Assembly (NCBI GenBank): GCA_009103225.1
Contig: RHPI01002568.1
Coordinates: forward strand, 75,742 to 139,741
Length of the DNA stretch: 64,000 nucleotides
Source of the DNA: Chlorokybus atmophyticus
Lineage: Eukaryota; Plantae; Mesostigma and Chlorokybus algae
Direction: 5' to 3'
Of the stretch, positions 4,487-57,497 are shown one piece after another. A program made the translations under genes and the position numbers. The first letter of the stretch is position 1; each line of letters starts with the position of its first letter. The notes beneath the pieces are model-generated. The model was not told the DNA's origin. It worked only from the letters and a program-made list of their open reading frames with translations, and did no database searches.

Positions 4487-5175
4487 TGTCGGGTCGAGGA
4501 GAGTTAAGGGTCACATTGTCTCGGGCCGCTGCAGGGAAATACATGCTTGCTAACCCTGTCGCTGCAACATGTTATAACATGTAATAAAAGTAAAAGATTA
4601 TCGAGATGCGTTGACAAACCTACACATGCACATGTATGCACGCCACCCAACACCAACGCCAAGAGTCTGCAACAACAAGACTAAGACCAAGACCATCTAT
4701 TGCCATCGTGTCCGCGGTTTTAATACTCGCCAGGAATACACCTGTCTACTCTAGAAGCAACCACGTTCGCTACACGTATTCGAATGCTGCATTCTAAGAA
4801 GCATCTTGTAACTACTTTCAAGGGCTATTTACTAAGCTCTAGAACGCCCAAATTGGTGCAGTAACCACCGAGTTATGACGATTCTCGTGCAGGCCGGAAA
4901 GTCGCCAGACTCCGGACTCGAGTCCGCGCCTAGAACCTTCACGCGCCTGGAAACTTTCGACTTGAGTCCTCGCCTAGAGCCTTCTCGCGGCCATTCCTAT
5001 TCAGAGGGCAAGCTGACCGTCCGCCTGGATGTAGGAATATCTTCAACAAAGATAACCCAGCTCGTATGGCGAGGAGTGCTTGGTGGAGCTGCTCCGCTGT
5101 CGCTAAATCACACGGACATGTGGAGGTGGTGTCCTCCTTAGTGTATAGGCTGTGCTGTAGGGCACACAGTTAACA
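4487..5175 (-). repeat. Terminal repeat A2 of the decayed gypsy (contains the solo LTR at 4599-5048)
   Basis: Starts TGTTAAC and ends CCCGACA on the minus strand; matches 5807-6039 once the insertion is removed. Confidence 0.85.
4599..5048 (-). repeat. Copia-family solo LTR with 5-bp TSD AAGAT
   Basis: Minus-strand start TGTTGAAGATATTCCTACATCC with the GGTCAGCTTGCCC motif; aagat on both sides (4594-4598, 5049-5053); the other terminus has decayed to TA. Confidence 0.8.
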
Positions 5176-5804
5176 AGCTACTACTATAGGTAGTGCTGTT
5201 TACACAGTTCTTTGCATGAGCGGAAGTGTGTTACACTTTTAAGTGAGGTGAATGAGCAAGCAACACGTGGATATTACGCCCTAACTGATGCCGACAAACA
5301 CAGTGCGAGCAGGCACACCAAGCTCACAGCAATGACGAGCACGATGCACACACGAGCATGCACAGGCTCTCACACAGTGAGGGGGTTCTTGGTAACCGGG
5401 ATGGCGTTGTTCGCAATTCAAGTCGTTTCACAAGCTCTTAGCTTTCTCACTCATTGTGGCACCGGCTGATCCGGTGAACACTGTGACTACTTATACAAGT
5501 CCAATCGATTGAACTTGTATAAGTGTTTTGAACAGTCATGACTGTTCAGAAAATAAGCTGACGGTCATATCGACGCTATTTCCACAGCAATTGTCACTCG
5601 ACATAGGACACAACTTATAATTGAACTCACAACTGAACAGCTACGCGTGGTGCCTATGTAGGCTATGGTTGTGAGCTATTCAGGAGTCATGACCTAGCTA
5701 ATGGTCGGTGACGCGCGCGCGCTGGTATGCTGGTAGGTCCGGCGATGGTTTTCGATGTAGACATGCTCAGTGAAGGTAGGTATGCGAGGGCATTAGGCAT
5801 GACA
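5176..5804 (-). repeat. Terminal repeat B2 of the decayed gypsy
   Basis: Begins TGTCATGCC on the minus strand and is clearly homologous to 18868-19462 and 29102-29697. Confidence 0.85.
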
Positions 5805-5806
5805 GC

Positions 5807-6039
5807 TGTCGGGTCGAGGAGAGTCAAGGGTCACATTGTCTCGGGCCGCTGCAGGGAAAGACATGCTTGCTAGCCCTGTCGCTGCAACATGTTATAACAT
5901 GTAATAAACGTAAAAGATAACCTAGCTCGTATGGCATGAGTGCTTGGTGGAGCTGCTCCGCTGTTGCTGAATCACATGGACATGTGGAGGCGGTGTCCTC
6001 CTTATTGAACAGGCTGTGCTGTAGGGCACACACTTAACA
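5807..6039 (-). repeat. Terminal repeat A1 of the decayed gypsy, directly after the PPT
   Basis: Preceded by CAGGGGGGGTGGCT, runs TGTTAAG...CCCGACA, and is separated from B2 by GC. Confidence 0.85.
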
Positions 6040-6089
6040 AGCCACCCCCCCTGAGTTTTTGGGAAGGTTCCAGCTCCAGATTTCAGTTG

Positions 6090-10407: not shown

Positions 10408-13400
10408 TCAAACACAGATGCCAAGTCCTGCACAACAAGTCTTGAACTTGAGCGGTGACAATGGCTTTGTCATGAAGTCCGCCAGCATGCCCTCAGTGTT
10501 GCAGTACTGGAACTCCACCTCCTTCCTTGTGACTCTGTCACGCACAAAGTGATGCATGACATCAATGTGCTTCGTCCTTGCCGAGGCGATATGGTGCTTC
10601 AACAACTTGATGGCTCCTTGGTTGTCACAGTTGATGACGATGCACGCCATGGGGTGCTTCAAGTCTGCCATGAGCTTGCGAAGCCAGAGTGCCTCCTTCG
10701 CTGCTGCTGCCGCTGCCATGTACTCAGCCTCTGATGTACATGCTGCTGTTGTTGGCTGCAGCCTGCTGTTCCAGCTCACCACGCCTCTGTTCAGCTTGAA
10801 GACGTAGCCTGTAGTGGACCTCCTGCTGTTGAGGTCACCAGCAAAGTCTGAGTCGCAGTAGCCCTCCAACTCAATGCTCCCGCTCCCAAACTTGATGCCA
10901 ACTGTTGCGCTCCCAGCAACATAGCGTAGTACTCCCTTTGCTGCTCTCCAGTGCTCCATGCTCGGTGCAGACATGTACCGAGCAAGTACTCCCACAGCAT
11001 GTGCAACATCGGGACGTGTGCACACTGCCAGATAGAGCATGCTGCCTACCAGCTCACCATATGCATACCGAGCCTTGTCGAGTACCTCCTCATCCTTTGC
11101 CTTGATGAGGGTAGTGCCAAGTGCCAACGGTGTGGTCTTGGTCTTCGCTTCAGTGAGCCCAAACCTGGTGACGAGTCTTCTCACCATCTGCTCCTTACTA
11201 ATCTTGATTGTGCGAGCAGCCCTGTCGCGCTCAATCACCATGCCAAGGAACCACTTGGCCTCTCTAAGATCACGGACTGAGAATGCTTGCTGTAGAGCAA
11301 GTTTCGTCTCCTGCACGTGGTGCACCTGCCTGGCGGTGATGATGATATCATCAACATACACGAGCAGCCAGACTTTGTTGTCTACATGGATGAAGAGCCC
11401 AGGGTCTGCAGAGGATGCGGTGAAGCCAAGTGCCTCCAGCTCCTTGGTGAGCTTGATGTGCCACATACGCGGTGCCTGTCGCAGCCCGTACAGTGCCTTG
11501 ATCAGCTTGCACGCTGTGCCTCTCTCCCCTTCTTCATATCCAAGTGGTTGCTCGATGAAGATCTCCTCCTCCAGCTCTCCGTAGAGGAAGGCAGTCTTCA
11601 CATCCAGGTGACGAAGCTCTAGGTCTTCAGCAGCAACCATAGCTAGTAGTGCACGGAAGGTGGTATGCTTACTTGCAGGTGCAAACACTTCGTTGAAGTC
11701 CACACCTTCCTGCTGCAAGAAGCCCTTTGCCACCAGTCTTGCCTTGTAGCGCTCAATGTTGCCCTGACCATCACGCTTCACCTTGAAGACCCATTTCACT
11801 GGAATGGTCTTCACTCCTTGCGGTAACTGCTCCAGTGACCAAGTGTTGTTGGCATGGAGTGACGCAATCTCCTCGTCCATAGCACGCTGCTATTGCTCCG
11901 CATTTGGTGCTAACAATGCCTCCTCGTAGGTGCTTGGCTCCTCATTTTGCACACTGGCGACGTGTGCCTTGTATAGGAAGTCAGGTGCCTTTCTCTCCCT
12001 CACTGGGTATCTCCGAGCTGCGTGCTCCTGCTGTTTGTACGGCTCCTCTTGGCCTGCTACAGCTGAGTCCTGCTCACCCTTGTTGTTGATGATGGCCTTG
12101 CATGTAGCCTCCACTGTTTCAGGATGCTCCGGCTGTGCTTCATCTTCAGAAAAGAAGCCTGCTTTTGGTTGTGATAATCCCTCGTGGAAAACCACCTCTC
12201 TGCTCACAATAATCTTCTAAGTGTCCTCGAGCATGATCGTGTAAGCCTTGGAACCCGGTTCATAGCCAACGAAGATGCCCTTGTTGCTGACCGGCTCCAG
12301 CTTGTGCCTGAGCTGTTTAAGCACTAGTGCATATGCCGTGCATCCAAACACATGCATACTACTCACATCTGGTGTGGCTCCATAGAAGTGCTCCCACGGA
12401 GTCTTCTGCTCTAAGCTCACCGGAGACCTGTTGCGGATGTAGTTGACAGTGAGTACCGCTTTCTTCCACAGACTGTCTTCCATCTTTGTGTCGTTGAGCA
12501 TGGCTCGAACACGCTCCAAGATGGTCCTGTTGAGGTGTTCAGCTGCTCCATTTTGCTGCGGGGTGTAGGGTGCCGTTGTCTCGTGGCGTATGCCCTTGCT
12601 GGTGAAGAACTCCTTCACCTCCATGTTGATGTACTCCCCTCCTCGGTCACTCCTCATTGCCTTCATCTTGTTGCTAGACTGCGTCTCCAACAAGGCCACA
12701 ACTGTGCGCACAGCTCCAGCGACTTTTGACTTGAGCGTCAATGGAAAGATGATGGGCAGTTTGCTGTAGTCGTCGAGGAATGTAGCAAAGTACCTGGCCC
12801 CTCCCTTCGCCACAATGCGCATAGGGCCACAGACATCTATGTGCACAAGCTCACAAGGATGCTAACTGCTAGGAGAGGATGATGGGAATGGCATAGCATG
12901 CTGCTTTGCAACCAGGCATGGTTCACAAAGCGCACCTGATGCATGTTTGAGTTCTTTTGTGCTGAGATGGATGCTCTTGACCATCTTCTCAGCGACAAGG
13001 CGAGTGAGGTTGACGTAGCTGAGATGCCCGAACCTTCGATGCCACAATGTTGGCGACTCCTTGTCCTTCACTACCATGGCTTGAATGTCAATGTCCTTAG
13101 GGTGCTGCTCCACGTGGTAGAGCCCTCCCGGACCAGTGATTCCAACCATGTGCACGACCCCATCAAGGATGACTGAGCAGCCACCCTTCCGAAATAGGAT
13201 CTCCGCGCCTAAGCGTTCCGCAACCCTCACAGAGAATAGACTCGCAATAGCCTTAGGAACATGCAGCACGTTGCGTAACAACACCTCGCGTAGTGTGTTA
13301 CTAATCTTGCACTGGAGTCGTACGTTGCCAACTCCCTCAGCCACCAGTACTTCGCCACCGAAGCCCGCCACCTTGATTGTGGACGTCAGCTTCCTGTAGC

Positions 13401-14310
13401 CCTCCATCACCTCCTTGTTTGGTGTGAGATGACGATCGCAGCCAGAGTCCACCTAAAAAGCTATGCCCGCCCTCGAACTGGATGCAATGAAGGCGACATG
13501 TTTCTTCTTGTGTTGGTGCTCGTTGCCGCTGTTGCTGGTGCTTGCTCTTGGTTGCCCCTGTTGTTTCTTCCAACCATCCTTCACAATGTGCCCCTTCCAA
13601 CCACACCAGTGGCATGTGAGGTCTTTGTGACGAGGATTGCCTGGCTTGTTGCCCTTGTTCTTCTCTTCATGGTTGCTCTTCTTTCCGTGCTTATTGGTGT
13701 AGAAGGTTACGGCATCAGCTTATTCGTCCTTCTTCATCACCCTCTGCTCCACGGTGAGCAGCTTCGGTAGTACATCGTCCAGCGTCAGCTCTGATGACGA
13801 TGTCTCCAGCAGTGTTGCAACGACCTCGTACTCTGCTGGTAGCCCTGCAACAACAGCCAGCACAACCTCCGTCTCCCCCATGTTATGGCCGACGTTGATG
13901 AGGTCCGCCCACAGCTCTCTCGCACGCGCAACATACTTTGTGATGGGTTCTGCTGCCTCCTTCCTCAGTGCGCTCAGCTGCTTGCGTAGCTGCAACTTTC
14001 TGGCGTTGTTCTTGGCTCTGAAAACGGCTGATAGCTTTTCCCAAGCTTGTCTACCATCTTCACATGCAGTGAGCATGGGAAAATGATGCGGTTTGCAGTT
14101 CAACACAAGCAAAGAATGTGCTTCTGCTGAATGCTCTGACCACACAGTGTTCACTCCTGGTATTAGTGGTGGTGCCTTCGGATCAACGTACTTCCACACC
14201 TTCTTGTGGATGAGCAAGGCCTTCATCTCCACGCACCATGTGTTGTAGTTGTCGGTGTCCAGCTTTGCAATCTGCCCCTTGTCGTAGGTCGCCTCCATTT
14301 CTGTCAAGCC
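10408..14310 (-). pseudogene. pol: Copia gag-pol polyprotein: one reading frame broken by five in-frame stops
   Basis: KLDTDNYNTW (gag), CHWCGWKGH knuckle, VDSG protease, LWHRRFGH, HIDVCGP and RSDRGGEY integrase, RYKARLVAKG and LLVYVDD RT, GYCDSDFAG RNase H. The track ORFs ending at 13720, 12862, 12217, 11890 and 10408 share one frame. Confidence 0.93.
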
Positions 14311-16385: not shown

Positions 16386-16851
16386 TGTTGAGATTCGGAC
16401 ACTACTGAGCATGCATGGAGTTGGTGCAAGCGCAAGTACACACACTCCAGAGCATACACACAAGGCTGATCCAAAAGGCTTTCTAAGGATTACAACAAAG
16501 TCACACCGCGGGCTTTTATACCCGCCAGTTCTGCACCTGTCTACTCTAGAAGCCACCACGACTTCTACACTCAACCGATTCCTGCGCTCTAAGTTGCACC
16601 ACGTAGCTACTTTCAAGAGCTTTGCAACAAGCTATGACACGCGCCATAAAATGACGTAACCACCGAGCTACAACGTTTCTTCTACAGCGCCTGGAAGTCT
16701 CCAGACTCCGGACTCGACTCCGCGCCTGGAACCTTCTCGACTGAAGTCCTCGCCTGGACCTTTCTCGACTGGAACCTTCTCGCGCCTGAATTTTCTCGCG
16801 GCTATTCTTATCCACAGGGCAAGCTGACCGGATACAAAAATATCCTCAACA
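16386..16851 (-). repeat. Copia-family solo LTR with 5-bp TSD AGATA
   Basis: TG...CA termini with agata on both sides; reverse copy of 729-1197; removing it restores EVQGYLPLELV. Confidence 0.9.
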
Positions 16852-17300: not shown

Positions 17301-17669
17301 TAGCGTGTGCGTGGGGTGACTGCTGCTGCAATCTCCTCCGGTGGTCGAGCGCAGTGCGGCAAGCGCCCTTCAATCAGCTGGGTCTTGAGAACCTTCTGGA
17401 CCGCGGCCTGACCCGAACCGTCCTTGTCTTGGCTGTTGATAAACACACTGTGGCCTGAGTGCTGGCGGTGCTGCCTGTGGCTGCCCTGGTTGTGGTGCAG
17501 GGGGATTGCGCCTTTGTGTGGCCGGGTCCATTCCTGGCGGCATAGGCAGTAGCTGTTGGGGAAACCCTGGAGGACTGAGTGTTTGTGGCTAACCCCCGCA
17601 ACACGCTGATGATCAATGTGGCCATCTTGAACGGAGGCAGGTTGTTGAGCGCGCAGACGTCTTCGCTTC

Positions 17670-18867
17670 TTCCTGTGGGTTTTGTGCCCAAAGATCAGCT
17701 TCACAAGGGGGTGACAACATGTACCCCTTTCTAAAGCCACTTATAGACGAGCTCAAATTACTGCTGCTTGAGGGCTTCACCTGCAATTACGCCCTCCCCA
17801 CCTCTGAAGTTTGCCCTGACCTGCACTCTCAAGCAGTCGGTGCTACCACGCGCTTGCGTGCGATGCTGCTCATCTGGGCTGATGATTACCCAGCCCAGTG
17901 TCAGGTACTAAAGATGAAAGATGGTGGCATCTTGGGCTGCCGTAGATGCTGGTGTAAAGCCCAGCCCTACATGGAAGAAGCCCAAAGGCCTGTAATGCGC
18001 AAGGCTGCTCCAGTGTCCGACGATGAGCAGGTGTCTGCTTGCAAGAAGCTGAAGGCTGTTTCCAAGTTCAGCAGCCAAGCAAAGTCTGCTAGCAGGAATA
18101 AGACGCAGGCGGCTGAGAAGAAGCAGATGAAGAAGAAGGAGAAGCAACCTGCCAGCAAGAAGCGTGCTGCTGCATCAACCAGCAATGGTCCAGCTGGTCC
18201 TAGCAACTCCCAAGCAGTGGAGCTCAACACCTACCAGAAGAAGGTCTACCGCTACGATCACAACTTCATGCACTTAGGACATCCATGGCCCGAGAGAGAA
18301 GAACAGGAGACTCTGACCAACATTGATAAGCTGGAGACTGCTGCTACCCCTGCTATTGGAACACAAATCAGCATGGAGACAGGTGTCATGTTGAGAAGCA
18401 AGCATGCAAGTGAAGAGGGCAAGTAACGACGCGCAGGAGAAGGCAACACAGTTCCCAATTTATTACCAACAGACCGCGGGGTTATATACCCGCCAGTCAG
18501 TACATAGTTTGTACACACTGCTGGTCTACATGCAACAGCGTCCGATATACTGAACCATATCGTACGCTGTAAGATGTGCCACGTAGCTAACTTGATAAGC
18601 TTTGAAACAAGCTATGCCACGTCCTATAAGACTAAGTATCCTAGGAGATATGACGATTCTCCTAGGACCCTTCTCTGCAGTCCGCGCCAGGACCTTCATG
18701 TCCGGAGTCTTCGAGGTCCTCCCATCGAGGTCCCTTCTCTTCTCTCTTGTATGCAGGGCAGGCTGACCGGATGTAGGAATATCTTCAACATGTCACAGGC
18801 AAGAGCCAACTGTGGCGCCTCTACCATGCCTACGGCTTCAGCCCACTCAAGGACGTGGTGTACGATG
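17670..18867 (+). pseudogene. En/Spm(CACTA)/Plavaka-like DDE transposase, 5' part
   Basis: YPFLKPLIDELKLLLLEG, LRAMLLIWADDYPA, GCRRC; reads through to DVVYD after removing the solo LTR at 18389-18790. Confidence 0.65.
18389..18790 (-). repeat. Copia-family solo LTR with 5-bp TSD TGTCA
   Basis: Minus-strand start TGTTGAAGATATTCCTACATCCGGTCAGC; tgtca on both sides; removing it restores METGVTGKSQLW. Confidence 0.88.
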
Positions 18868-19470
18868 TGTCATGCCTATCGCCCAAGCATGCCAGTCGTC
18901 ATCGGGCATGCCTACAGCGAGACCCTCGCCCGGCTTACCAGCATGGCAACCCGCGCGCGCCTCTGACCAGTAGCTAGGTCATGTCCCTAGAGTAGCTCGT
19001 GACCATAGCCTGCATAGGCACCGCGCGTAGCTGTGCAGTTGTGAGTTCAGTTATAAGTCCGGTTCTATATCGAGTGGGCATTTCCTGTGGAAATAGCCTC
19101 AATATAACCGTTAGCTTATGTTCTGGACAGTCATGAGTTGACTTGTATAAGTAGGCACAGTGTTCACCGGATCAGCTGGTGACACTGTAAGTGAGAAAGC
19201 TAAGAGCTTGTGAAGCGACTTGAACTACGAACACAACGTCCTGGTTCCCAAGAATCCCCTCACCGTGTGAGAGCCTGTGCATGTTCTTGTGCACTGTGCT
19301 TGTTCTTGCTGTGAGCTTTGTGTACTTGGTCGCGGTGTGCTCGTTGGCATCAGTCAGGGCATAGCATCCACGTGTTGCTTGCTCATTCATCTCACTGAAC
19401 AGTGTATTCCTCTCCCACTCACGCAAAGAACTGTGTAAACAGCACTACCTATAGTAGTGGCTTGTTGACT
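18868..19470 (+). repeat. 5' terminal repeat B1 (595 bp) plus the first 8 nt of repeat A
   Basis: Near-identical to 29102-29705. Confidence 0.93.
19146..19150 (+). promoter_or_regulatory. Candidate TATA box of the element
   Basis: TGTATAAGTAG is conserved in all three B copies and lies about 30 nt upstream of the self-complementary 15-mer at 19178. Confidence 0.5.
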
Positions 19471-19482
19471 TACAGTGTCACC
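19468..19482 (+). promoter_or_regulatory. Candidate self-priming primer-binding site
   Basis: ACTTACAGTGTCACC is the exact reverse complement of GGTGACACTGTAAGT at 19178-19192; no TGG-initiated tRNA PBS follows the repeat. Confidence 0.65.
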
Positions 19483-19681
19483 CTCTTTGCTCAAGTGAGT
19501 GTAGTTGCAAGCTGTACATCAGCATCGCAATCTGTAGTTGTACACATCACAGTGCAGTGTTGTCACCGTCATCGCATAGCGCGCACAAGCGCTAGTGTGT
19601 TGGGTGATAGCAGCATTAGAGATCCCATTGTAGAACACAAACACTCTACCCTTTATCCACTTTCACCATCGCACCAGCTGT

Positions 19682-22600
19682 ATGAGCAGGCCCACCCCGT
19701 TCTCCCCAATAGACGAGGGTGACCTCAGCAGTTGGAGCCCAACCACCAACCTCACATACGAGCGGACCAGTGACGGGAGCATCAACCGCAGCAGCAGAGG
19801 CCAGCGCTCCATCTCCGGCTTCACCCCGCTCCACTCTACTCCTCGTCATCAAGCTTCTCCACTATCATCGGACAGCGACGACAACAAGATGGAGTCTTCC
19901 AGTTCAACCACATCCCTGCGCTTCTCCGGACGTGCCGGCACCACCTCGCTGGATGAGTTCATCATCAAGTTCCACTCCAAGATGCGGCAGCAAGCTCTGA
20001 AGAACAAAGACTGGTCAGATGAGATCTCTTTCCACATTGCTGCTCAGTATCTTGATTATGAAGCACACGATGTCTGGAAGTCCGTTGCTGAACTGCATCG
20101 AGTAGACGGCTATGGCGAGCTTGCCAGCACCATAGCATCTGCATCGCTGCACCGTCCAACAGGTGTCGTTCCACCTGCCACTTCAGTTGCAGTAACAGGC
20201 TTGTCCATAGCTGCAGCTCTCAAGCAGGCAGAGGAGGAGGAACCGGAGTTGGTACTTGTCAACTTGACCCCTGCAGAAGTTGAGTCCAAGGAGGCCACAC
20301 GTCGAGTCCGCATCCTTGACCGTTCTGCCGTCATCATTGAGGAACAAAAAGCTGCACAGCAAGCGGCAGCCGCAGAGTGGGGTCCTCCTCTACCTCCGGC
20401 AACACCTAGCTCTCGTGCGGGAGGCAGTACCTTCACCCTCGGGTCAGTAGCACTGCGTGCACCAGCCATCTCCGTAGGTGCTGCCATCTCTGATTTGCCA
20501 CTCAAGGATCTGTACGCTGCCCTGCGCCGCACCTTCCCTCCTCAGACCACCAGCAAGGTTGAGGAGCTGAGACGCTTCCGACGCAAGCCCAATGAGGATC
20601 CCCTCCGCTTGTACTCCAGACTGGAAGGTCTGCTAGAGGACACTGATTACAGGATTGTCAGTGAGGAGGCTGCTGCAGTGATATGCGTCAATGAGTTGGA
20701 TGCTGCTCTGAGCGAGTCGACACGCCTGACTCTGAACTACAGCAGGCCCCTTGGCTACACCCTCAAGGAAGCTTTCGAGACTGCAGAAGCCATCCATAAG
20801 CGCGCAGTGTATGAGAAAGCGGTGCTGGACACCAATCGCAGTGCCTCACGGCCTATGGCAGGCACAAGTGCAGAGCCTCCTCGGCGGGACCGCAGCCGGG
20901 AGTCGCAAGGCATCCATTACAAGGATAAACGGTCAGCTCATGCTGCCCTTGTGGCTCCAGTGCTGTGCCACCGGTGTGATCGACATGGCCACTACAAAAA
21001 GGAGTGCACCGAAGATTACGGCAACCTTGTGTGCGACCACTGCCACAAGACGGGACACTTGGAGACAGTATGCTGGCTCAAGTTCCCTGAGCTGCGGCCC
21101 CCTATTGGCTACAACAACAGCAACAACGCTGTTGGCTACCGCGGCCACAACAACCACAACAACAACGGGGGCTACAACAACAGCAACCATGCTGGCGGCC
21201 ACAACAACAGCAACAACGCTGGTGGTCGCAACAACGGCAATTACGCTGGTGGCCACAACCCCAACAACAACAGCAACGCTGGCGCCCGCAAGGAAGAAGC
21301 TGGCTATAGGGGGAAAAACCGCCCTCCACAGCACAAAGGACTTGAGGGACGTCCTCGCGCTGGAGCTGCTGCTGTCAAGGCACCAACCAATCCACCGGCT
21401 ATCGACCAAGTGGCAGCCCTGATGGCGCGCGTGGCACAGCTGGAGGAAAACAAGGAGCAGGACTATCAAGCCTGCTATGCTGCTAGGTGGGCATTGATGG
21501 CACCGAAACGGGATAGGGACACTCCCACGCCGTCACGCGTACAACCATCCAGACGGGCGCGCAGGGAAGCTGGCGCGTCGTCAACAGCGGCATCGTCGGA
21601 CGCCACAAGTGGTGCTGCCTCGGCAGCCACAACCACCGCTGGGACGACGCCGTCGACGACACCGTCGGCGTCCACACCGACTACGACAGCAGGTGTCAGC
21701 ACTCTTGGCACCACGCTGTTCCCGGTGATGGAGAGCACCCACGCCGCAGCAACCATGGTCGTTGGGTTCGTAAGTGGTGAATCCACCACTCCTGCCTCCA
21801 TCGGAGCGACCACATCAACCGCAATTGCTGCCACCCTCACAGCCGCCACTTCAATGACGACGACTGCGGCAGGTGCCACCACCATCGCCTCCAGTAGTGC
21901 TGCCATACCCACCGCACCACTTCCTGAAAGCCGGACGGCACCGCCACCAGCATTGGACGTCACACAGCAAGTGCCACGCGGGCCGCAAGCAGAACGCGCC
22001 TGGGCGTCGATTCTACGCAACGTGGAGCCCACCACTATTGCGTACGGACCAGGGGGGCAACGCACCACGCGCGTGGCACGCGATGATTGCATCTTGCCCC
22101 TACCACCGCCAGAATACCACACGCTGCCAGAACCCACACAACAGCAGCTGGAGGATGAAATCCTCGCCGGCACTGCACCAGAGATGAGGGATCGTCTGTT
22201 CGGGGTCACCTATCGCCGACCTGCGGTGTTGGAACTGGCCATCCAGTTATTCCTGGCATTACATGCACGGTTGCAGGGCGCACCCAGTCAATCGCGACAG
22301 CCCATGCCCGCTCAACAGATTGACTTCGAGCCTTCGCCACTGGACCTACTCGGCCTCCAGCGACACAAACTCCAAGACCTCGTGGTCACGATGTCTGACA
22401 TCGCGCTGGGCGCTGATCCCGCTCTCCGGGGGCTCACTCCAGGCAGTCGTCAAGAGCGTTTTTCTGCACTCGAACAGGCCCATCGGTATCGCATGGACCA
22501 AGCTGCCCAAGTGGACGCGCGCCGACAAGCGTACGAAGCAGCACACGCCGTTATCGTACCAACCGTAGCGCCAGCACATGTTGCCAGCGCCTCCACGGCG

Positions 22601-23737
22601 CCGACCACAGCACACTCCACTGCGATGGCCATCGAGCAGCCGGGACACGCAACTGTTGCAGACCAAGCGAGGGCGTTGGCGCAACAATTGAGGGGAGTAA
22701 TTGCCCCGCTGCTGCCTCCTTTGGTCGAAGACATGCCTGAGGATCAACGCGATGCAGGGCGAGGGTACCTCACCCCGCAAGGGGACACCACACAACGAGG
22801 AGGAGCTGGTATGGTGGGGGAGCAACAACTCCGTACCGCACTCATCCGGCAAGCAGTCATGTTGCACAGGCCTGAGGGCAACACATTAAGACAGATGATG
22901 GGGATGCAAGAGGGCAGCGCCGCGCGAGCTCGTCTCGTGACATGGCTTGTTGCCAATCACCCTGCTGTCCCTCTGTTTGCCTTTGGCAACCGAGCATCAT
23001 GGTTGGGGGCATTCGTTCGTTCGCTGCGACAAGCATACGACGAGGCTGCCACCACAGCCCCGGACACGCTGGAGGGAGTGCAAAAGGCAATGCTTCGGCT
23101 GCCAGGGGTGGAAGCCGCACGGCAACGGCGGCGCATCGCCATTGCTCATGAGCTACACGTACAGCAGACTGACCTCCAGCGCACCCTACGTGCTCGCGCC
23201 ATGACTGTGCTCGATGTGGGAGTGGTACAAGGAAGGTGGGATGCCTACATGGCAGGGATCCTACGAGTCCCCACCATTACTCACGACATGCGGCGACAGC
23301 TGCTACGCGCCGTATACCTGCAGCCCATGCCTCAATATCATCATTGGACCGACACGGACACCGAGCCCACGGCCACGTGGGAAGGGACATTGGTCAGAGA
23401 AGCGGCTCATGCTGTGCGATGGACGTACGCCGCGGAGCAAGCTGAACGCGAGGCAGGCCCACAAACACCGGGTCCACCGGGGTTCCCTCCACAGCCACTG
23501 GGTACGCCCGCGGGCATGATTCCAGCTTCGCAGAGGCGTCATCCACCTGCGCCGCAACCACAACCGGCGCCGGATCCTCCAGCACCGAGGCCCCCCCGTG
23601 TCTACCAACCACCTCGACAAGGTCGGTTCGGCAGAGGGAGAGGGCAAGGAGGGGGTTCTCCGGACCCAGCAGGCAGAGGAGCTCTGGCTGCCATGCGCTC
23701 AGCATCTCCAGCTGAGGCAACTGAGTCAGAGGAATAG
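19682..23737 (+). CDS. gag: Gag-like polyprotein, 1351 aa, with two CCHC zinc knuckles and a long C-terminal extension
   Basis: Open frame; CHRCDRHGHYKKEC and CDHCHKTGHLETVC; lies between the 5' repeat and the protease. Confidence 0.88.
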   Translation: MSRPTPFSPIDEGDLSSWSPTTNLTYERTSDGSINRSSRGQRSISGFTPLHSTPRHQASPLSSDSDDNKMESSSSTTSLRFSGRAGTTSLDEFIIKFHSKMRQQALKNKDWSDEISFHIAAQYLDYEAHDVWKSVAELHRVDGYGELASTIASASLHRPTGVVPPATSVAVTGLSIAAALKQAEEEEPELVLVNLTPAEVESKEATRRVRILDRSAVIIEEQKAAQQAAAAEWGPPLPPATPSSRAGGSTFTLGSVALRAPAISVGAAISDLPLKDLYAALRRTFPPQTTSKVEELRRFRRKPNEDPLRLYSRLEGLLEDTDYRIVSEEAAAVICVNELDAALSESTRLTLNYSRPLGYTLKEAFETAEAIHKRAVYEKAVLDTNRSASRPMAGTSAEPPRRDRSRESQGIHYKDKRSAHAALVAPVLCHRCDRHGHYKKECTEDYGNLVCDHCHKTGHLETVCWLKFPELRPPIGYNNSNNAVGYRGHNNHNNNGGYNNSNHAGGHNNSNNAGGRNNGNYAGGHNPNNNSNAGARKEEAGYRGKNRPPQHKGLEGRPRAGAAAVKAPTNPPAIDQVAALMARVAQLEENKEQDYQACYAARWALMAPKRDRDTPTPSRVQPSRRARREAGASSTAASSDATSGAASAATTTAGTTPSTTPSASTPTTTAGVSTLGTTLFPVMESTHAAATMVVGFVSGESTTPASIGATTSTAIAATLTAATSMTTTAAGATTIASSSAAIPTAPLPESRTAPPPALDVTQQVPRGPQAERAWASILRNVEPTTIAYGPGGQRTTRVARDDCILPLPPPEYHTLPEPTQQQLEDEILAGTAPEMRDRLFGVTYRRPAVLELAIQLFLALHARLQGAPSQSRQPMPAQQIDFEPSPLDLLGLQRHKLQDLVVTMSDIALGADPALRGLTPGSRQERFSALEQAHRYRMDQAAQVDARRQAYEAAHAVIVPTVAPAHVASASTAPTTAHSTAMAIEQPGHATVADQARALAQQLRGVIAPLLPPLVEDMPEDQRDAGRGYLTPQGDTTQRGGAGMVGEQQLRTALIRQAVMLHRPEGNTLRQMMGMQEGSAARARLVTWLVANHPAVPLFAFGNRASWLGAFVRSLRQAYDEAATTAPDTLEGVQKAMLRLPGVEAARQRRRIAIAHELHVQQTDLQRTLRARAMTVLDVGVVQGRWDAYMAGILRVPTITHDMRRQLLRAVYLQPMPQYHHWTDTDTEPTATWEGTLVREAAHAVRWTYAAEQAEREAGPQTPGPPGFPPQPLGTPAGMIPASQRRHPPAPQPQPAPDPPAPRPPRVYQPPRQGRFGRGRGQGGGSPDPAGRGALAAMRSASPAEATESEE

Positions 23738-23746
23738 ACACCTCGC

Positions 23747-24898
23747 ATGAAGAGGCTGCGTATCGACGCCAACGTTGCCATGGTGGCCAACCAAGGCAAG
23801 CACGTTACCATCAACGGTCTGGCACCCAAGCGGGTAATGTTGGACACCGGAGCACAGCCTGTCATCATCGGGCGCTTCCTCGCGCGGTCCCTAGGCATAA
23901 CCAGTTCCGACTTGGTGCCTTGCCCGTACGTGTTGGACACTGCCACAGGTAGCCGAGATAAGGTGATGGGAGTCACCAGGGAGGCCTTTTGCATTCGGTT
24001 GACAGGGCTGGACCCAACCCACACGACCGAGATCGTCCAGCAATGCGTGGTCACCAATGCCGGCTCCTTCGACTTTCTGCTTGGGCAGGATTTCAACTTC
24101 CCTGTGGGCATGGGCCTCGACTGCTGGACAGAACGAGCGTGGTTTCGGCCACATTGGGATGAGGACGACGGAGAGGTACAGGGCTTCCTGCCTCTCGAGT
24201 TGGTCTCGCGCACGCGCGCCCAACGCAAAATGGCTGCCATGGCCACACGCAGACACGCCCGCACCCGGAAGGCTGTAGTGGCCATATACGACGGTGCTCG
24301 GACCATCCCGTACAACGAAGAGCAGGAGGATGCCACCGTGGAAGTAGCATTACAAGACCCAGCTGAACGGCGCTGGCGCGCACAGGTGGACGCACACATC
24401 TTGCTCAGCCACCCACTGATCACCACGCGCTTCCCCAACTACCGAAGCCACGTCAAGGTGCAGGACCACCATATGGTGGCCACCGGAGTGGTGGAATTCC
24501 ACACCTTTCGCAGGCAACAGGGCATCACAGTGTTGGAGCTGTTTGGAGGCATTGGCAGTGGTCTTGCTGCGGTCCTCAACACGGGCGTGAAGGTTACCAA
24601 CTATTACTGCGACCCAAACCCACACGCGCAAACGGGCCTCAAGCACCACTTACGCCAACTGCACACCAGGTATCCACGGCAACTACCCCTCTCGGCGTTG
24701 CAAGGCAGCCTCAAAGCATTGCCACAGGATGTCCGGCTGATCACTGAAGATCACCTACTGTCCCTCGGCAACGTCGACCTGTTAATAGCTGGATGGGAAT
24801 GCCAAGGGCACTCCAGGGCAGGCAAGGGACAAGCTTGTCCCTTAAGCTTGTCCCTTAAGGCCTCGAAAACCCTCGCTCCAGGTTGTTCTGGGAGCTGA
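23747..24898 (+). CDS. pol: Pol N-terminal part: aspartic protease plus DNMT3-like motifs I-IV, ended by a frameshifting 26-bp insertion
   Basis: VMLDTGAQ, FDFLLGQDF, ITVLELFGGIGSGL, VDLLIAGWECQGHSRAG. Confidence 0.88.
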   Translation: MKRLRIDANVAMVANQGKHVTINGLAPKRVMLDTGAQPVIIGRFLARSLGITSSDLVPCPYVLDTATGSRDKVMGVTREAFCIRLTGLDPTHTTEIVQQCVVTNAGSFDFLLGQDFNFPVGMGLDCWTERAWFRPHWDEDDGEVQGFLPLELVSRTRAQRKMAAMATRRHARTRKAVVAIYDGARTIPYNEEQEDATVEVALQDPAERRWRAQVDAHILLSHPLITTRFPNYRSHVKVQDHHMVATGVVEFHTFRRQQGITVLELFGGIGSGLAAVLNTGVKVTNYYCDPNPHAQTGLKHHLRQLHTRYPRQLPLSALQGSLKALPQDVRLITEDHLLSLGNVDLLIAGWECQGHSRAGKGQACPLSLSLKASKTLAPGCSGS

Positions 24899-27800
24899 TG
24901 AGGATCATCCACCTCCTTCAACACCACCAGATCTCCAGACCCCTGGGGTACGTCATCGAAAATGTGCATTCAGAGGACGACAAGCGTCCGCACGTGGCCT
25001 CCAGCTACCGACAAGTTTGCTCCATTCTGGGGCACCCACTCAAGGTGAACGCGGCACGACATGGCTCGCGCGCACATCGTGTACGTGCCAAATGGACAAA
25101 CTTGGCCACCGTGGAGGAGCTCATGACCGCCAAATACACGCGCAGCGCTCGGCCGCGCAACCTGCTGGTCGACGACATCCTTGACCCCGGCCGCACAGCA
25201 CAACCTGTCCTGCATCATAACCACAACCACTTCTACCAGTGCAATCAGCCTGGTCAGCCCCGTCGCGCACTCCCCACATTGGTGTCCTACCCGGGCTCCT
25301 ACGCATTTCGGAACGGTGGTGACGGGATGGTATTTGATGCGACCACCAACACGCTGGAAGAACCCACCGCACGCGAACGTGAACGCGCCATGGGCTTCTT
25401 CCCCAACAGCATCACAGGTTCATTGCTGACAGACAGTCAGCAATGCCAGCTGCTTGGTCGCGCCATGGACCAGAACAGCATGGTATGGCTGCTGGAGCTG
25501 AGCTTCGCGTTGCAGGACCGCCACGTGTCCTTCGAGGATCTCGAACACTTGGCTGGGGGGTGGGCTGATCGCGTAGCCGACACCAAGGCAGCTCACACAG
25601 CTCTCGAGGTGGTCCACATGGAGGAGCAAGCGGCAGTGACAGTGGAGGACATTTCTGTGGTTGCCAATGCAACCTCCTGGGACCATGCCATTGGCCCGGT
25701 GGCCACGGAAGACACTCGAGAGAAGCTGGAGGCTCTCCTCAATAAATGGAGGAGCCAATTCAGCTTCAATGTGAAGGAATTGGGTACATGTTCGGTGTAC
25801 CAGATGGACATCGAGCTAGTGGACACTGAGCCGGTGTTCCGGCGACAATACAGGCTCTCCAAGTTGGAAGAAGACTTGGTGGAACAGAGATGTAAGGCGC
25901 TGCTGGATGCAGGCCTTATCGAAGAGTCCACATCGGACTTCGCAGCAGCAACCGTCATGCCCCTGAAGAAGGATTCAGCAGGCAACTGGACAGAGCGACG
26001 CATGTGTGGCAACTATCGTCCCCTCAACAACAAGACCAAGCAAGACCGGCACCCCATGCCCACAGCAGAGGGTATTTTTGATGATGTAGGAGACTGCACA
26101 GTCTTCAGCATCCTGGACATGCGTCAGGGGTACAACCAGATCGCCATCGAGGACGAGGACAAGCACAAGACCTCCTTCTGGGGCAACCGCCAGTTGTACC
26201 AATGGAAGGTAATGCCGTTCGGGCTGAAGAATGCCCCCGCCAAGTTTCAACGCGTCATGGACAAGGCCTTGAAGGGGTTGGACTGCGCGCGGTGCTACAT
26301 CGATGACATCCTCATCTTCAGCCGCAGCAACGAGGAGCATCTTCAGCACATCGAAGCGGTGCTGGAACGACTCAAGGGAGTGGGGATGACCGTACACCCC
26401 GACAAGTGTACCTTCTTCACCCACAAGGTGCCGTACTTAGGGCACATGATTGTGCCCCATGGTGTGTATGTGCAGCAGGCAAAAGTAGAGGCTCTGGCAG
26501 CTATCCCTGCCCCGACAGACCTCACGCGCCTGCGCGCTTTCTTGGGACTTGCCAACTATTATCGCCGATTCGTGAAGGACTTCGCGAAGATCGCAAGGCC
26601 CCTCAACGAGCTACTGAAAAAGGAGGTGGAGTTCGCGTGGAAGGAGCCGCAACAGCAGGCCTTCGAGGAGCTGAAGAGCAGACTCACCAGCGCTCCCATC
26701 CTTCAACGTCCGGACTACGCCAAGCCTTTCATCCTTCACACCGACTGGAGCAAGCTGGGGATGGGAGCGGTGCTGGTGCAGCACGATGAGCACAAGAAGG
26801 AGCGGGTGGTGGCATACGCCAGCCGAAGCAACAACAGCGCCGAGGCCAACTACAGCAGCTATAAAGGGGAATGCCTCGCTGCAGTGTGGGCCATCTCCTT
26901 CTTCCGACCTTTCCTCTTTGGTCGACAGTTCCAACTGATCACCGATTATCAGCCCCTCAAGTGGCTGATGACCAACCAACATCTGACAGGGAAACTTGCT
27001 CGATGGGCCCTGCTGTTACAGGAATACGACTTCGAGATTGACCACCGCGCTGGCCTCACCAACCAAGACGCCGATGGCCTCAGTCGCAACCCCCACCTCA
27101 GCACCAACGACGCAACTGGAGCGCGGCATGAGCTCATCCCTGCAGCAACAGCTCCCACCATGGCAGCCATGTTTGCTGCTGCCGCGTTGCGCTCAGGGCG
27201 CAAGACCAACACCACGGCCTCAGCAGTGGTAGAGGAGATTCCCGCCCTTGAGTCTACCGACCCTGCGGCAATCACACCCTTGGGAGACGCCCACGCAGCC
27301 GACATTGACGTCGATGACACAGAGCTGGCGTCCACTGACACCAGGCAGGACATATGGCACGACAAGCCATCACTTTCCTTTCTTCAACGTGGCCATCTCC
27401 CCTCTGGCATGAGCGCTCGAAAGAAGGACCGGGTCAACCAACGCACCCGTCACTATCGATGGGCAGGTGACAAGCTGTATCGCCGCTTCCACGACGAAGA
27501 CAAGGAAGTGCCGACACCAGTCACGCGCGAGGACATTATTGCTTCCCTCCACACTGAGCTTGGACACTTTGGTGTCAAGCGCACAGTCAGTTTAGTGAGA
27601 GCACAATATTGGTGGTATGGATTAACAAAACAGGTGCAAAGGTTCGTCAGTCACTGCCAGCAGTGTGACATGGTGCGCGCCAGCCTCAACACGCGTAGCG
27701 CCACCTTGCACCCACTCCCCATCTCCGGTCTCTTTTACCGATGGGGACTCGACATCTTGGGGGACTTGGCACCCTCAGCACGTGGCAACCGTTACATCCT

Positions 27801-28812
27801 GGTCATGATTGAGCACTTCTCCAAATGGGTGGAGCTGGTGCCATTACCCGACAAGAGCAGCAGGGGGGTGTCTCAAGCCTTCCTCTCTCACGTTCTCAGC
27901 CGCTTTGGCAGCTGCGCCGAGGTCATCACCGACCAAGGTACTGAGTTCAGAGGGGAATTCGACACCCTCTTGGACAAATGTTACATCGACCACCGCCGTA
28001 CCTCGCGTGATCACCCTCAAGCCGACGGCCTCGCCGAGCGGACGGTACAGACCATCAAGAAGGCACTCCGCAAATACGTGTTGGAGTACAAGAAGGACAC
28101 TTGGGATGACCACCTTCCATGGGTGGCCCTTGGATATCGGTTGTCAAAACAGGCGACTCTGCGGGAGTACAGCCCGTACTACCTGCTGTTTGGGCGACCA
28201 CCATTGCTCCCCTTCCGTGCGCAACAGGAGGTAAATCGCGTCGTGAACAACCTCGACGACCCTGACTGGATGCACCACGACATCACCACACGCGCCGCAC
28301 TTTTCGAGCGCACCGTCCCCATGGCCTTCAACAATCTGCGCATCGCGCAGCATCGCGACACGCTGCGCTACGAGCGCGTACGTAGCGGCTTTTATAAGGA
28401 GCGCCAACGGCGATTCCAAGCGGGGCACCTTGCCTATCGCATGGCAGCCACCAAAGACACGCTTGACACCTCCGTAGGCCGCACCGTCTACAAGGTACTC
28501 AAAGTGTACCCCACAGGGGTGCTGGACCTCCTTGGTCAAAACGGAGAAAGGTTGAAGGACAACATGGTGAACTGTGCGCCATGTCACCTCCCTTACGTAG
28601 CTGGCTTCGGGCGTATCCAGCACCCTCGTCCTGCGCGCAGCACATGCTGTGAACACTGCGGCAGCGCCGGCGACGACGCACTCATGATGCTCTGCGATGG
28701 CTGCAACAAAGGCCTGCATTGCTATTGCCTGGATCCACCTTTGGACACGATACCTATGGAAGAATATTGGTGCGACGACTGCCGTACCAACGGCCCTCCT
28801 CACTTGCGCTAG
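24883..28812 (+). CDS. pol: Pol C-terminal part: DNMT3-like motifs VI-X, RT, RNase H, integrase, PHD finger
   Basis: YVIENV, AHRVRAKWTNL, RERERAMGF, LLGRAMD; LDMRQGYNQ, PFGLKNAP, YIDD; HTDWS; H-H-C-C zinc finger, WGLD, DQGTEF, GLAER; C4HC3 PHD at 28648-28782. Confidence 0.93.
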   Translation: MFWELMRIIHLLQHHQISRPLGYVIENVHSEDDKRPHVASSYRQVCSILGHPLKVNAARHGSRAHRVRAKWTNLATVEELMTAKYTRSARPRNLLVDDILDPGRTAQPVLHHNHNHFYQCNQPGQPRRALPTLVSYPGSYAFRNGGDGMVFDATTNTLEEPTARERERAMGFFPNSITGSLLTDSQQCQLLGRAMDQNSMVWLLELSFALQDRHVSFEDLEHLAGGWADRVADTKAAHTALEVVHMEEQAAVTVEDISVVANATSWDHAIGPVATEDTREKLEALLNKWRSQFSFNVKELGTCSVYQMDIELVDTEPVFRRQYRLSKLEEDLVEQRCKALLDAGLIEESTSDFAAATVMPLKKDSAGNWTERRMCGNYRPLNNKTKQDRHPMPTAEGIFDDVGDCTVFSILDMRQGYNQIAIEDEDKHKTSFWGNRQLYQWKVMPFGLKNAPAKFQRVMDKALKGLDCARCYIDDILIFSRSNEEHLQHIEAVLERLKGVGMTVHPDKCTFFTHKVPYLGHMIVPHGVYVQQAKVEALAAIPAPTDLTRLRAFLGLANYYRRFVKDFAKIARPLNELLKKEVEFAWKEPQQQAFEELKSRLTSAPILQRPDYAKPFILHTDWSKLGMGAVLVQHDEHKKERVVAYASRSNNSAEANYSSYKGECLAAVWAISFFRPFLFGRQFQLITDYQPLKWLMTNQHLTGKLARWALLLQEYDFEIDHRAGLTNQDADGLSRNPHLSTNDATGARHELIPAATAPTMAAMFAAAALRSGRKTNTTASAVVEEIPALESTDPAAITPLGDAHAADIDVDDTELASTDTRQDIWHDKPSLSFLQRGHLPSGMSARKKDRVNQRTRHYRWAGDKLYRRFHDEDKEVPTPVTREDIIASLHTELGHFGVKRTVSLVRAQYWWYGLTKQVQRFVSHCQQCDMVRASLNTRSATLHPLPISGLFYRWGLDILGDLAPSARGNRYILVMIEHFSKWVELVPLPDKSSRGVSQAFLSHVLSRFGSCAEVITDQGTEFRGEFDTLLDKCYIDHRRTSRDHPQADGLAERTVQTIKKALRKYVLEYKKDTWDDHLPWVALGYRLSKQATLREYSPYYLLFGRPPLLPFRAQQEVNRVVNNLDDPDWMHHDITTRAALFERTVPMAFNNLRIAQHRDTLRYERVRSGFYKERQRRFQAGHLAYRMAATKDTLDTSVGRTVYKVLKVYPTGVLDLLGQNGERLKDNMVNCAPCHLPYVAGFGRIQHPRPARSTCCEHCGSAGDDALMMLCDGCNKGLHCYCLDPPLDTIPMEEYWCDDCRTNGPPHLR

Positions 28813-28849
28813 TAGCTGAGCTCTGGAGCTGGCACCTTCCCCAGAGCCC

Positions 28850-28862
28850 AGGGGGGGGGGCT
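28850..28862 (+). promoter_or_regulatory. Polypurine tract (A-G10) followed by CT and the TG start of repeat A1
   Basis: AGGGGGGGGGGCT-TGTTG; an equivalent tract precedes A1 in the decayed copy. Confidence 0.75.
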
Positions 28863-29099
28863 TGTTGACTCTGTATGCTACGGCACAGCATGTTCTTAGG
28901 GAAAACACCGACTCCATCTGCCCGTACTACCCAGCAGCAGCACCCCAGCTGCACTAAGCACTTGTCACCATGAGGGTGGGAGTCATCTTTCTATTCTTGC
29001 TACGCGTCACCCAGGTGGCGCAGCAGCATGTCCAGCACAGTATGGCTGTCCATGCAGCTGTCCGAGACAGCGTGACCCTCGACTCCCCTCGACCCGACA
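28863..29099 (+). repeat. Terminal repeat A1 (237 bp)
   Basis: TGTTGACT...CCCGACA; near-identical to 29698-29934. Confidence 0.93.
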
Positions 29100-29101
29100 G
29101 C

Positions 29102-29697
29102 TGTCATGCCTATCGCCCAAGCATGCCAGTCGTCATCGGGCATGCCTACAGCGAGACCCTCGCCCGGCTTACCAGCATGGCAACCCGCGAGCGCCTCTGA
29201 CCAGTAGCTAGGTCATGTCCCTAGAGTAGCTCGTGACCATAGCCTGCATAGGCACCGCGCGTAGCTGTGCAATTGTGAGTTCAGTTATAAGTCCGGTTCT
29301 ATACCGAGTGGGCATTTCCTGTGGAAATAGCCTCGATATGACCGTTAGCTTATGTTCTGGACAGTCATGAGTTGACTTGTATAAGTAGGCACAGTGTTCA
29401 CCGGATCAGCTGGTGACACTGTAAGTGAGAAAGCTAAGAGCTTGTGAAGCGACTTGAACTACGAACACAACGTCCTGGTTCCCAAGAATCCCCTCACCGT
29501 GTGAGAGCCTGTGCATGTTCTTGTGCACTGTGCTTGTTCTTGCTATGAGCTTTGTGTACTTGGTCGCGGTGTGCTTGTTGGCATCAGTCAGGGCATAGCA
29601 TCCACATGTTGCTTGCTCATTCACCTCACTTAACAGTGTAATTCCTCTCCCACTCACGCAAAGAACTGTGTAAACAGCACTACCTATAGTAGTGGCT
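29102..29697 (+). repeat. Terminal repeat B2 (596 bp)
   Basis: Near-identical to 18868-19462. Confidence 0.93.
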
Positions 29698-29934
29698 TGT
29701 TGACTCTGTATGCTACGGCACAGCGTGTTCTTAGGGAAAACACTGACTCCATCTGCCCGTACTACCCAGCAGCAGCACCCCAGCTGCACTAAGCACTTGT
29801 CACCATGAGGGTGGAGGTCATCTTTCTATTCTTGCTACGCGTCACCCAGGTGGCGCAGCAGCATGTCCAGCACAGTATGGCTGTCCATGCAGCTATCCGA
29901 GACAGCGTGACCCTCGACTCCCCTCGACCCGACA
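29698..29934 (+). repeat. Terminal repeat A2 (237 bp), the right end of the element
   Basis: Near-identical to A1; followed by the TSD GATG. Confidence 0.93.
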
Positions 29935-31300
29935 GATGTCATGCACACCTTGTGTGAAGGTCTAGTGAAGGGCCTCTGCCATGCAGTTTTTGCCAAGGGA
30001 GCGCATGAAAGGGTGGTGGATGTTCCCTTGGTGGAGGCCAGGCTTAAGGACTTCACTGCAGATTGGATCAAGGAAATGCGATCCGGGCGCTCTCCAAAGG
30101 GGATTACAGACAGGCTGGGCTGGTGGAGAAGGCAGAAGACTACCAGAAGTTGATGCATGACTTTGCACCTTATGTGACAACGGGCTTGCTGACTTCGCAC
30201 ATGCGCGACGTCTTCATGTCCTTACACAAGCTCATCTGCCAGTTCTATCGCCACTCCCGCTTCAATGGCTGGACCGAGCCTCAGACACCCTCAGACTAGC
30301 AGGCAGCTTACTGCGTTACTGGCGTATCAACTCAGAAGAATGCTTTGGCCACAACTTGAGACCTCTAGAGCATGCTGGAGCAAGTCATTTGCTGGACGAC
30401 ATCTTCCGCCACGACAGCCATGATGTGTACTGGTGCTACGTCTTCGAGCGCGCTATCTCAGATCACTTGAAGACCAGCACCAACAACAAAGAGTATGAGT
30501 TCAGCTACATACATCGCCACGTACGCTTGTGGTATGAGCGGCTGCTTACTGTCTTGCACGAAGACCAGCGCACGGGCATGGTCTTTGCAACACGCGTTCA
30601 CCTGCAGTTGCGGTCCCATCGCGTGTCCAGCGGTGTTGGAGGTTTCTGGTACGAAGCGCCCAGCCAAAGCAAGGCTTTGGAACTCTGGAAAAAGGCTGAG
30701 ACGTGTCCACACCGGTCTGATTCACAAGACATTTTTGCGCGAGGCATACTTATTGGCCAGCTGCCAGGTCAACCCACACCACTAAGCTAAAAACGGTTTA
30801 TGATGGTCAGCAGGCACATCAGAGCAGATGCTAGGCATCTCGTGCAGAATATGGCTTACCGCTATAAGGCTGTGCTGCTTAATGGTGAGATTCACAGGTA
30901 AGATCGCTTGCTATTGTTGTCCTCACACGTGCTGTTGTGCTTGCTGTCTGATTGCTACCAAGCTTTGTGTTCTACTGTGCAGAATAGAGTCGCCCTTAGG
31001 CATTGACAACGTTGTAACGGACGACCACAGTTACATTGCTGTGAAGCAAGTATTTGTGCATATCTATAAGAAGAAGCCTCAAGTCTTCATTGCTGGTCGC
31101 CAATATGTCATGTACACAGACACAGCTGGTGCCTTGTACCGTGACCTTGATACAAGGTCGAGCTCCGACAAAGCCTACTCATCAATTCTGACATAGCTTG
31201 ACTGGATTGCATGTGTGCAGACGCAACACATTTGAAAAATTGGTCGCTATTAATGCCATTTATGAGGATGACTGCATGCAAGCAGAGTGGGATCCTGCAA
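29935..31300 (+). pseudogene. En/Spm(CACTA)/Plavaka-like transposase, 3' part (frameshifts, probable intron)
   Basis: DVMHTLCEG, KAEDYQKL, HLLDDI...VYWCYVFERAI; GTAAG...TGCAG intron-like segment near 30898-30981. The end is approximate. Confidence 0.6.
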
Positions 31301-49930: not shown

Positions 49931-50294
49931 TGACATCGACATCGACACCATGCGGCCACAGCTTGTTGCCAACAGGCACCCACCGTGAGTGCCAGTGCGT
50001 GACGCCAACTTCCTCACCGCCTCCTCCCCCGTGACCACACATGTGCCTGTCCGCCATCCGCCCAAGGTCCAAGTAGTGCGCACAAAAGGACACGGATGCA
50101 CACGCACACACAAGTTCACACATGCAGGCACGTGCGTTTGCACATACAGCACGCCTTGAATGCTGTGGCTCCATGAACGTCAACGCTTGGTCCAGTCAGA
50201 CCTTTGATATGGTGCCCACATGTAGAGTGTCTCCTTTTCTGCGTGCCGCTACCACCAGCATCAATACCGGTACCATGCTCGCTTTGCCATTACC
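49931..50294 (+). repeat. 364-bp segment duplicated at 56135-56498
   Basis: The two copies appear identical by eye. Confidence 0.9.
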
Positions 50295-57447: not shown

Positions 57448-57497
57448 TCCGACGTCTACTTGCAGCGTCGTATAGTTGTTTGGGGTAGTGCTATTCT

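Follow-up and report, generated by a model that had tools for sequence, protein, structure and literature searches.

The locus described here raises the question of how a retrotransposon with a DDE integrase comes to be inserted with its repeats out of the usual order. In the window, i.e. the whole stretch of 64,000 nucleotides of Chlorokybus atmophyticus DNA that was analyzed, a Ty3/gypsy retrotransposon of ~11 kb (E1, 18868-29934) is arranged as B...PPT-A-GC-B-A inside a 4-bp target duplication. Its left terminus, TGTCATG at 18868, and its right terminus, CCCGACA at 29934, are both flanked by GATG (18864-67 and 29935-38). The layout is made up of the following features:

18864..18867, plus strand: left target-site duplication GATG, equal to 29935-29938; the 5-mer does not match
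18868..19470, plus strand: repeat B1, opening with att-left TGTCATG; distal U3, R and U5 of the putative true LTR
19461..19470, plus strand: end of B1 that equals the start of A, CTTGTTGACT, the terminal overlap
28850..28860, plus strand: polypurine tract (PPT), A followed by 10 G; a G-run before A is also present in the relatives examined
28861..29099, plus strand: repeat A1, proximal U3, closing with att-right CCCGACA
29096..29105, no strand: palindromic internal att junction GACA-GC-TGTC, kept in relatives
29102..29705, plus strand: repeat B2
29696..29934, plus strand: repeat A2, whose first 10 nt, common to the end of B2, would be the end-to-end join of the cDNA
29935..29938, plus strand: right target-site duplication GATG

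The two copies of B match at 593 of 603 aligned nucleotides and those of A at 232 of 237. The right flank, GATGTCATGC, resembles the start of B by chance, which calls for caution in placing the right end; the end was fixed at CA because a second copy in the window (CGACA/TGAT) and the relatives agree on it. As E1 starts with TGTCATG and ends with CCCGACA between the GATG copies, the junction GACA-GC-TGTC consists of the right end, 2 nt and the left end of the element: within GACAGCTGTC at 29096-29105, CA occupies 29098-99, GC 29100-01 and TG 29102-03. This identity, first proposed in a sequence-only reading of the locus, is confirmed and recurs in the second copy and in relatives. Perfect 10-mer palindromes are common (93 of 63,991 window positions) and one alone is unremarkable; the weight of the junction palindrome derives from its position and its conservation, not from palindromy. 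Besides 29096, the exact 10-mer has a single other place in the window, the junction of the second copy (5801-5810); a 15-mer junction pattern has 3 matches versus 0.35 expected. The cut geometry put forward for the junction, CA/NN/TG with 2-nt 5' overhangs yielding the integrated ends, is supported, as is insertion of the integrase type, for which the 4-bp duplication and the DD35E integrase speak.

The second copy, E2, is represented by its 3' end and parts of its coding region:

4487..6051, minus strand: E2 3' end with PPT, A1 (6041-5807), GC, B2 (5804-5168) and A2 (5177-4487); ~79% identical to E1

Its PPT-A-GC-B-A end stops at the same CA as that of E1, and its A2 is interrupted at 4599-5047. 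The coding part reaches ~17588, with nested insertions, and a 5' end was not found within the window. The ~450-bp insert at 4599-5047 is solo-LTR-like with a 5-bp duplication (by eye), and related pieces lie at 729-1197, 16386-16851 and 18470-18664, one of them inside the E2 pol. Ty1/copia-type fragments (RVT_2, rve, SH3; 10408-13452, minus strand) are nested in the E2 coding region. Elsewhere in the window there are a weak Transposase_21 (CACTA tnp2) match under the curated cut-off just left of E1 (17593-18426, plus strand), ORFs of 953 and 859 aa at 57489-63211 (plus strand), of which the second has an RT domain unrelated to that of E1 (tblastn) and possibly belongs to a LINE, and an exact 364-bp direct repeat (49931-50294 and 56135-56498, ~6.2 kb apart).

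The coding region of E1 comprises three main ORFs:

19634..23737, plus strand: Gag-like ORF, stop to stop, 1367 aa, with zinc-knuckle-like CCHC motifs by eye; no Pfam match
23738..24898, plus strand: aspartic protease and N-terminal part of a C5 cytosine methyltransferase (WECQ motif); PF00145 weak, E 0.011
24859..28812, plus strand: rest of the methyltransferase region, RT, RNase H, H2C2 and rve integrase, PHD finger

The domain order protease-RT-RNase H-integrase with a Ty3-type RT, the DDE integrase (D-34 residues-E, i.e. DD35E), the TG...CA termini and a duplication within the 4-6-bp range are those of Ty3/gypsy elements, and the closest PDB match of the third ORF is Ty3 Gag-Pol (7q5b, E 4e-97). 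A PBS follows the 5' repeat and a PPT precedes the 3' repeat, the PBS being of the self-priming type. Two whole LTRs at the termini are absent, the layout being B...A-gc-B-A, and E1 is thus a variant, not a canonical Ty3/gypsy member. No chromodomain match was obtained in E1, and no tyrosine recombinase in its three main ORFs and nine other frames, all of at least 150 aa. The copy is broken by a TAG after gag and by a frameshift in the methyltransferase region, which puts protease and methyltransferase out of frame with pol; E2 is open at both positions. A methyltransferase lies inside the Gypsy pol of E1 (PF00145 is weak, the region of the catalytic motif being common to the homologues), and the homologues carry PF00145 and a DD35E integrase. 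The usual catalytic motif of C5-methyltransferases is PC; among the homologues that show the motif (P0001-P0123), it is mostly WECQ, with a minority of WPCQ. Named sources of homologues are Calypogeia, Closterium, Haematococcus, Pleodorina and Pseudoscourfieldia. A quick tree (IQ-TREE quick version, 28 RT-RNase H rows, L086 and the elements of Klebsormidium nitens absent) places E1 on the side of Closterium and Calypogeia, which by itself makes a streptophyte host likely.

For the relatives, the best 80 of 566 metagenome relatives and 7 genome-collection loci were mapped, with duplicates merged by flank (L003=L004=L013, L006=L007, L012=L043, L058=L060, L037=L038, L066=L069). Most counts stem from one family on short-read metagenome contigs with repeat pairs ~85-94% identical, where assembly bias and later mutation are possible. 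In this largest family, the internal junction is present in 27 distinct copies among the best 80 of 566, with a spacer of 2 nt in 27/27, either GC or mostly C>T/G>A decay products of GC, and 24 of the 27 continue to A2. Ten elements, E1 included, are complete at both ends and have A2; 7 of them lie within an exact 4-bp duplication, and the duplications of the remaining three show 1, 2 and 2 mismatches. The junction core ACA-NN-TGTC is kept despite unrelated repeats (L003-type, L026/L014, L081/L082/L001, L083 and L086) and lies on both sides of the deepest split of the quick tree, which lacks L086; L083 groups with chlorophyte rows in it. No clear junction was found in L084, L085 and L087. L001 and L081, the latter with a 127-nt terminal repeat, were left out of the counts, their order PPT-A-NN-B-PBS being obtained as readily from a collapsed assembly as from a 1-LTR circle. 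L081-L087 are seven contigs in prokaryote genome bins that encode this eukaryotic retrotransposon, likely by contamination. In viral_contigs, a protein search found no relative, and the 75 loci of a junction-pattern scan, none with a pol match, were taken as chance. The E1-type layout is real and extends across this clade, which represents a variant of Ty3/gypsy elements.

Where the cDNA ends depends on how reverse transcription is primed, to which three features of the 5' region of E1 relate:

19146..19151, plus strand: TATA-like box TATAAG, of presumed function; the self-primer follows 32 nt on, and in five relatives after 26-33 nt
19178..19192, plus strand: predicted self-primer, forming the RNA 5' end; all 15 nt are complementary to 19468-19482
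19471..19482, plus strand: putative primer-binding site (PBS) for self-priming

The sequence-only reading had assumed standard priming from a PBS; no PBS of the tRNA type was found after B1, where the sequence is TACAGTGTCACC, not TGG-, and the element's RNA probably serves as its own primer through its 5' end. ARAGORN found no tRNA. The predicted fold of the E1 RNA pairs 19178-19192 with 19468-19482 at a modest z of -2.1, 5 of 100 shuffles folding as well. Primer/PBS pairs of unrelated sequence are located 26-33 nt past a TATA box in the families L009/L080, L026 and L081/L001, such that the pair covaries across four families, that of E1 included. In the largest family, primer and PBS match over at least 8 nt in 10 of 13 B1 copies (in four of the ten over just 8 nt, and in one or two of them away from the primer position). 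Priming of E1 thereby looks like the self-priming of Tf1: in the Ty3/gypsy elements Tf1/Sushi and Tcn1, the PBS can base-pair with the 5' end of the RNA made from the same element (as described in PMC4600332 and PMC6317226). As far as these accounts go, Tf1/Sushi and Tcn1 have two whole terminal LTRs, whereas E1 has a PHD finger, no chromodomain match and permuted ends. With a 12-nt primer, the cDNA would end at 19470, the very position at which B1 and B2 diverge, so that the true LTR would be A-gc-B, with the att palindrome inside its U3. The linear cDNA originally envisaged, flanked by two A-gc-B repeats, is supported.

The two ends of such a cDNA share sequence. CTTGTTGACT occurs exactly three times in the window, at the end of B1 (19461), after the G-run (28861) and at the B2/A2 join (29696); the terminal overlap, put at 7-10 nt at first, is real and amounts to 10 nt, or 12 nt counting a shared GG. 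All contig depth of the runs X1 and X2 at 28858 has G>T, which would extend the overlap to 14 nt in sister copies. The contigs of these two public runs hold many related copies with an A-GC junction before the start of B, and one X2 contig joins the end of B back to the start of A; they are short Logan contigs, shorter than A-gc-B-PBS, and the permutation and the 5' overlap of the sister copies are outside their reach. Run X5 gave no matching contig. The overlap differs by family: the largest has 0-2 nt and that of E1 10-14 nt, with possibly 7 nt in that of L081 (by eye).

In the largest family, A opens with ATACATG right after the G-run and B closes with TTCAAT; the predicted cDNA ends are without TG/CA, and integrase could thus not use them in the usual way. 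The B/A join is blunt in 10 of 24 distinct copies and altered in 14: four count AT once, two are one base short, three are one base long and two have inserts of 17-18 nt, while that of L074 contains 40 nt from its own PBS region (31 matches, 8 mismatches), that of L009 is deleted into A, and in that of L078 a deletion enters B, with 4 nt of microhomology. Among copies with their own B1, 3 of 9 depart from the B1 end and A1 start (P ~1e-3 or less, based on a background indel rate of 10 per 4261 nt). In another family, the join of L014 has an insert that includes 11 nt duplicated from B sequence close by. At L018:3986-4640 and L051:7253-7571, the end of B is joined to inverted internal element DNA, as expected if joining takes place where element DNA is the partner; both joins resemble products of autointegration or template jumping. 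The pattern of a fixed junction and a variable join is the main feature that supports an end-joined intermediate. The claim that B/A arises by joining of cDNA ends is supported by these variable joins; its second part, joining via a 7-10-nt overlap, is not general, since the large related family joins with 0-2 nt, and a long overlap is thus not needed.

These observations suggest a mechanism that we consider moderately probable: the cDNA ends are joined before insertion, and integrase then cuts the internal palindrome. Transcription would start in B1 ~30 nt past the TATA box and end within B2. Minus-strand synthesis would be primed, in the manner of Tf1, by the first ~12 nt of the RNA annealed to the PBS, as the conserved complementarity suggests, and PPT priming and two strand transfers would, by standard LTR reverse transcription, yield [A-gc-B]-PBS...PPT-[A-gc-B], with cDNA ends that in several families would have no CA/TG att sequence. 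The end of B would then be joined to the start of A, either by an end-to-end jump of RT or by end-joining, with which the variability of the join is consistent, and in the family of E1 the 10-14-nt terminal repeat may help. Finally, integrase would nick both strands of the PBS-side junction just past CA and insert the DNA with a 4-bp stagger, giving B...A-gc-B-A. Retroviral 2-LTR junctions have a 4-bp spacer; that of the E1 clade has 2 bp, which counts against this mechanism. Template switching on 2-nt overlaps has been reported in vitro for RTs including that of Tf1 (in PMC3035444), and cleavage of palindromic 2-LTR junctions for the integrases of HIV and foamy virus (in PMC1905944, PMC1180852 and PMC4372172).

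A closed A-gc-B-A-gc-B circle has two junctions that are identical for hundreds of bases, so that a cut at either would insert it, and cutting of the other one would give the permutation B-A-gc-B...A, which had been suggested as a check. None of 18 distinct left ends is preceded by A (nominal P 4e-6 at even odds; the ends are those of E1, 13 plus-strand and 3 minus-strand copies of the largest family and L026, and short-read assembly may break B-A-B ends). The idea of a circle opened at the second junction consequently survives in part: product and cut site fit, but even cutting of a closed circle at its two junctions is unlikely, and an added asymmetry is needed. The PBS-side junction appears to be preferred by integrase, perhaps, speculatively, by that repeat becoming double-stranded first. 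If the PBS-side repeat is completed first, integrase would more likely act on a circle that is nicked or gapped than on one that is closed and symmetric. Twelve distinct loci end in PPT-A/flank without B2-A2; ten are without a 5' end, and the two that have one, L040 and L070, show no clean duplication. The twelve could represent the other permutation, insertions of 1-LTR circles or A-by-A recombination after insertion.

The strongest rival reverses the order of events, and sequence alone cannot fully part it from joining first. Integrase would open the PBS-side junction of the linear cDNA, and host break repair would then join the end of B to the start of A in the chromosome with no free circle; in a variant, annealing of the two A copies would instead leave a B...A form. 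This sequence of events would lead to an identical product, would make the joins just as variable, the L014 insert included, and would account for the 12 PPT-A/flank loci. It would, however, demand a chromosome break at every insertion, and no clear join of B to host DNA was seen at the end of B, the odd two cases (L018 and L051) being joined to element DNA; in E1, E2 and the one X2 contig, moreover, the join runs seamlessly through the overlap. We regard cutting before joining as rather unlikely.

Copying in the manner of DIRS and Ngaro elements is still less probable. Here, the transcript would run through A2, A2 and the ends would be rebuilt from RNA, and the B/A join would simply be inherited. 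The layout does equal the A1-B1-A2-B2 split direct repeats of PAT and Ngaro (as given in PMC4157794), and 10 of the 24 joins in the largest family are identical and blunt, but joins differ between copies and one contains PBS-derived sequence; the PPT before A1 and the covariation of self-primer and PBS in four families fit reverse transcription of the LTR type.

That a tyrosine recombinase supplied in trans integrates the circle, the element's own integrase being incidental, seems very improbable. Split repeats are otherwise typical of tyrosine-recombinase elements, and the target of E1 happens to resemble the junction over 8 nt; such a resemblance was rejected as a general rule, since it is not apparent in other flanks, and the TG...CA ends, the 4-bp duplications of varied sequence and the DD35E integrase of the homologues argue against a recombinase. 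That an ordinary LTR element was rearranged once, took up a nested insertion or was misassembled might be suspected in a window full of nested, broken elements and for a copy with a stop and a frameshift, but is hardly credible and already refuted by recurrence, the same layout being found in E2, at 24 distinct loci of one family and at 3 loci of two other families, enclosed as a whole by target duplications and published for K. nitens.

Joining before cutting, the preferred reading, can be set against known systems. The layout itself has been published: KnitGypsy-Dnmt3 of K. nitens (de Mendoza et al. 2018, PMC5890265) has, according to the Fig. 4 legend, a DIRS-like repeat arrangement and Gypsy domains, and by this description it shares with E1 a Gypsy pol with a cytosine methyltransferase and DIRS-like split repeats. 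As far as that account goes, no junction sequence, target duplication, priming mode or mechanism is given, PHD is unmentioned in the main text (0 matches), and a search of the supplement found no mechanism for the layout. A literature search whose scope stopped short of most subscription papers, Repbase and theses retrieved no paper explaining the layout in a Gypsy element, and the name 'KnitGypsy' only in PMC5890265. For Gypsy-7a_cRei of Chlamydomonas, a PHD and 'LTR subparts' are mentioned in the relevant part of PMC9940879. PAT/TOC/kangaroo and Ngaro elements share the A1...B1-A2-B2 layout with an internal junction made of the joined ends (from the portion of PMC4157794 on these elements), but they have a tyrosine recombinase, in contrast to the DDE integrase, PPT, PBS, TG...CA ends and 4-bp duplications of E1. 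By analogy, the step proposed for E1 would resemble what is described, in the accounts drawn on above, for HIV-1 and foamy virus, where integrase cuts a palindromic att junction inside double-stranded DNA; there, the palindrome arises where the cDNA ends are joined, and both LTRs remain whole in the provirus, whereas in E1 the palindrome is encoded mid-LTR, the end join would be a separate, non-att site and the product is permuted. In IS3 and IS30, a DDE enzyme inserts from abutted ends with a 2-3-bp spacer, as would be the case for E1, but these are bacterial DNA transposons in which the junction is made differently, by transposase and not by reverse transcription.

With about even confidence, we extend the preferred reading to a green-lineage-wide clade of LTR elements in which the att site would have moved to mid-U3, end-joined cDNA would be an obligatory precursor and the PBS-side junction would be picked of the two. 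2-LTR circles of retroviruses and LTR retrotransposons are usually called dead ends or, at most, a reserve (in the pertinent passages of PMC5314604, PMC4372172 and PMC7197481); if the proposal is true, a form usually seen as a dead end would be the normal insertion route. The clade would then have converged on the split repeats known from tyrosine-recombinase elements, and the proposal would explain why LTR finders that need two whole terminal repeats (as in PMC6317226) miss such elements. Natural elements that depend on integrase cutting a palindrome within them would also offer a clean test of the old question of integration from circle junctions.
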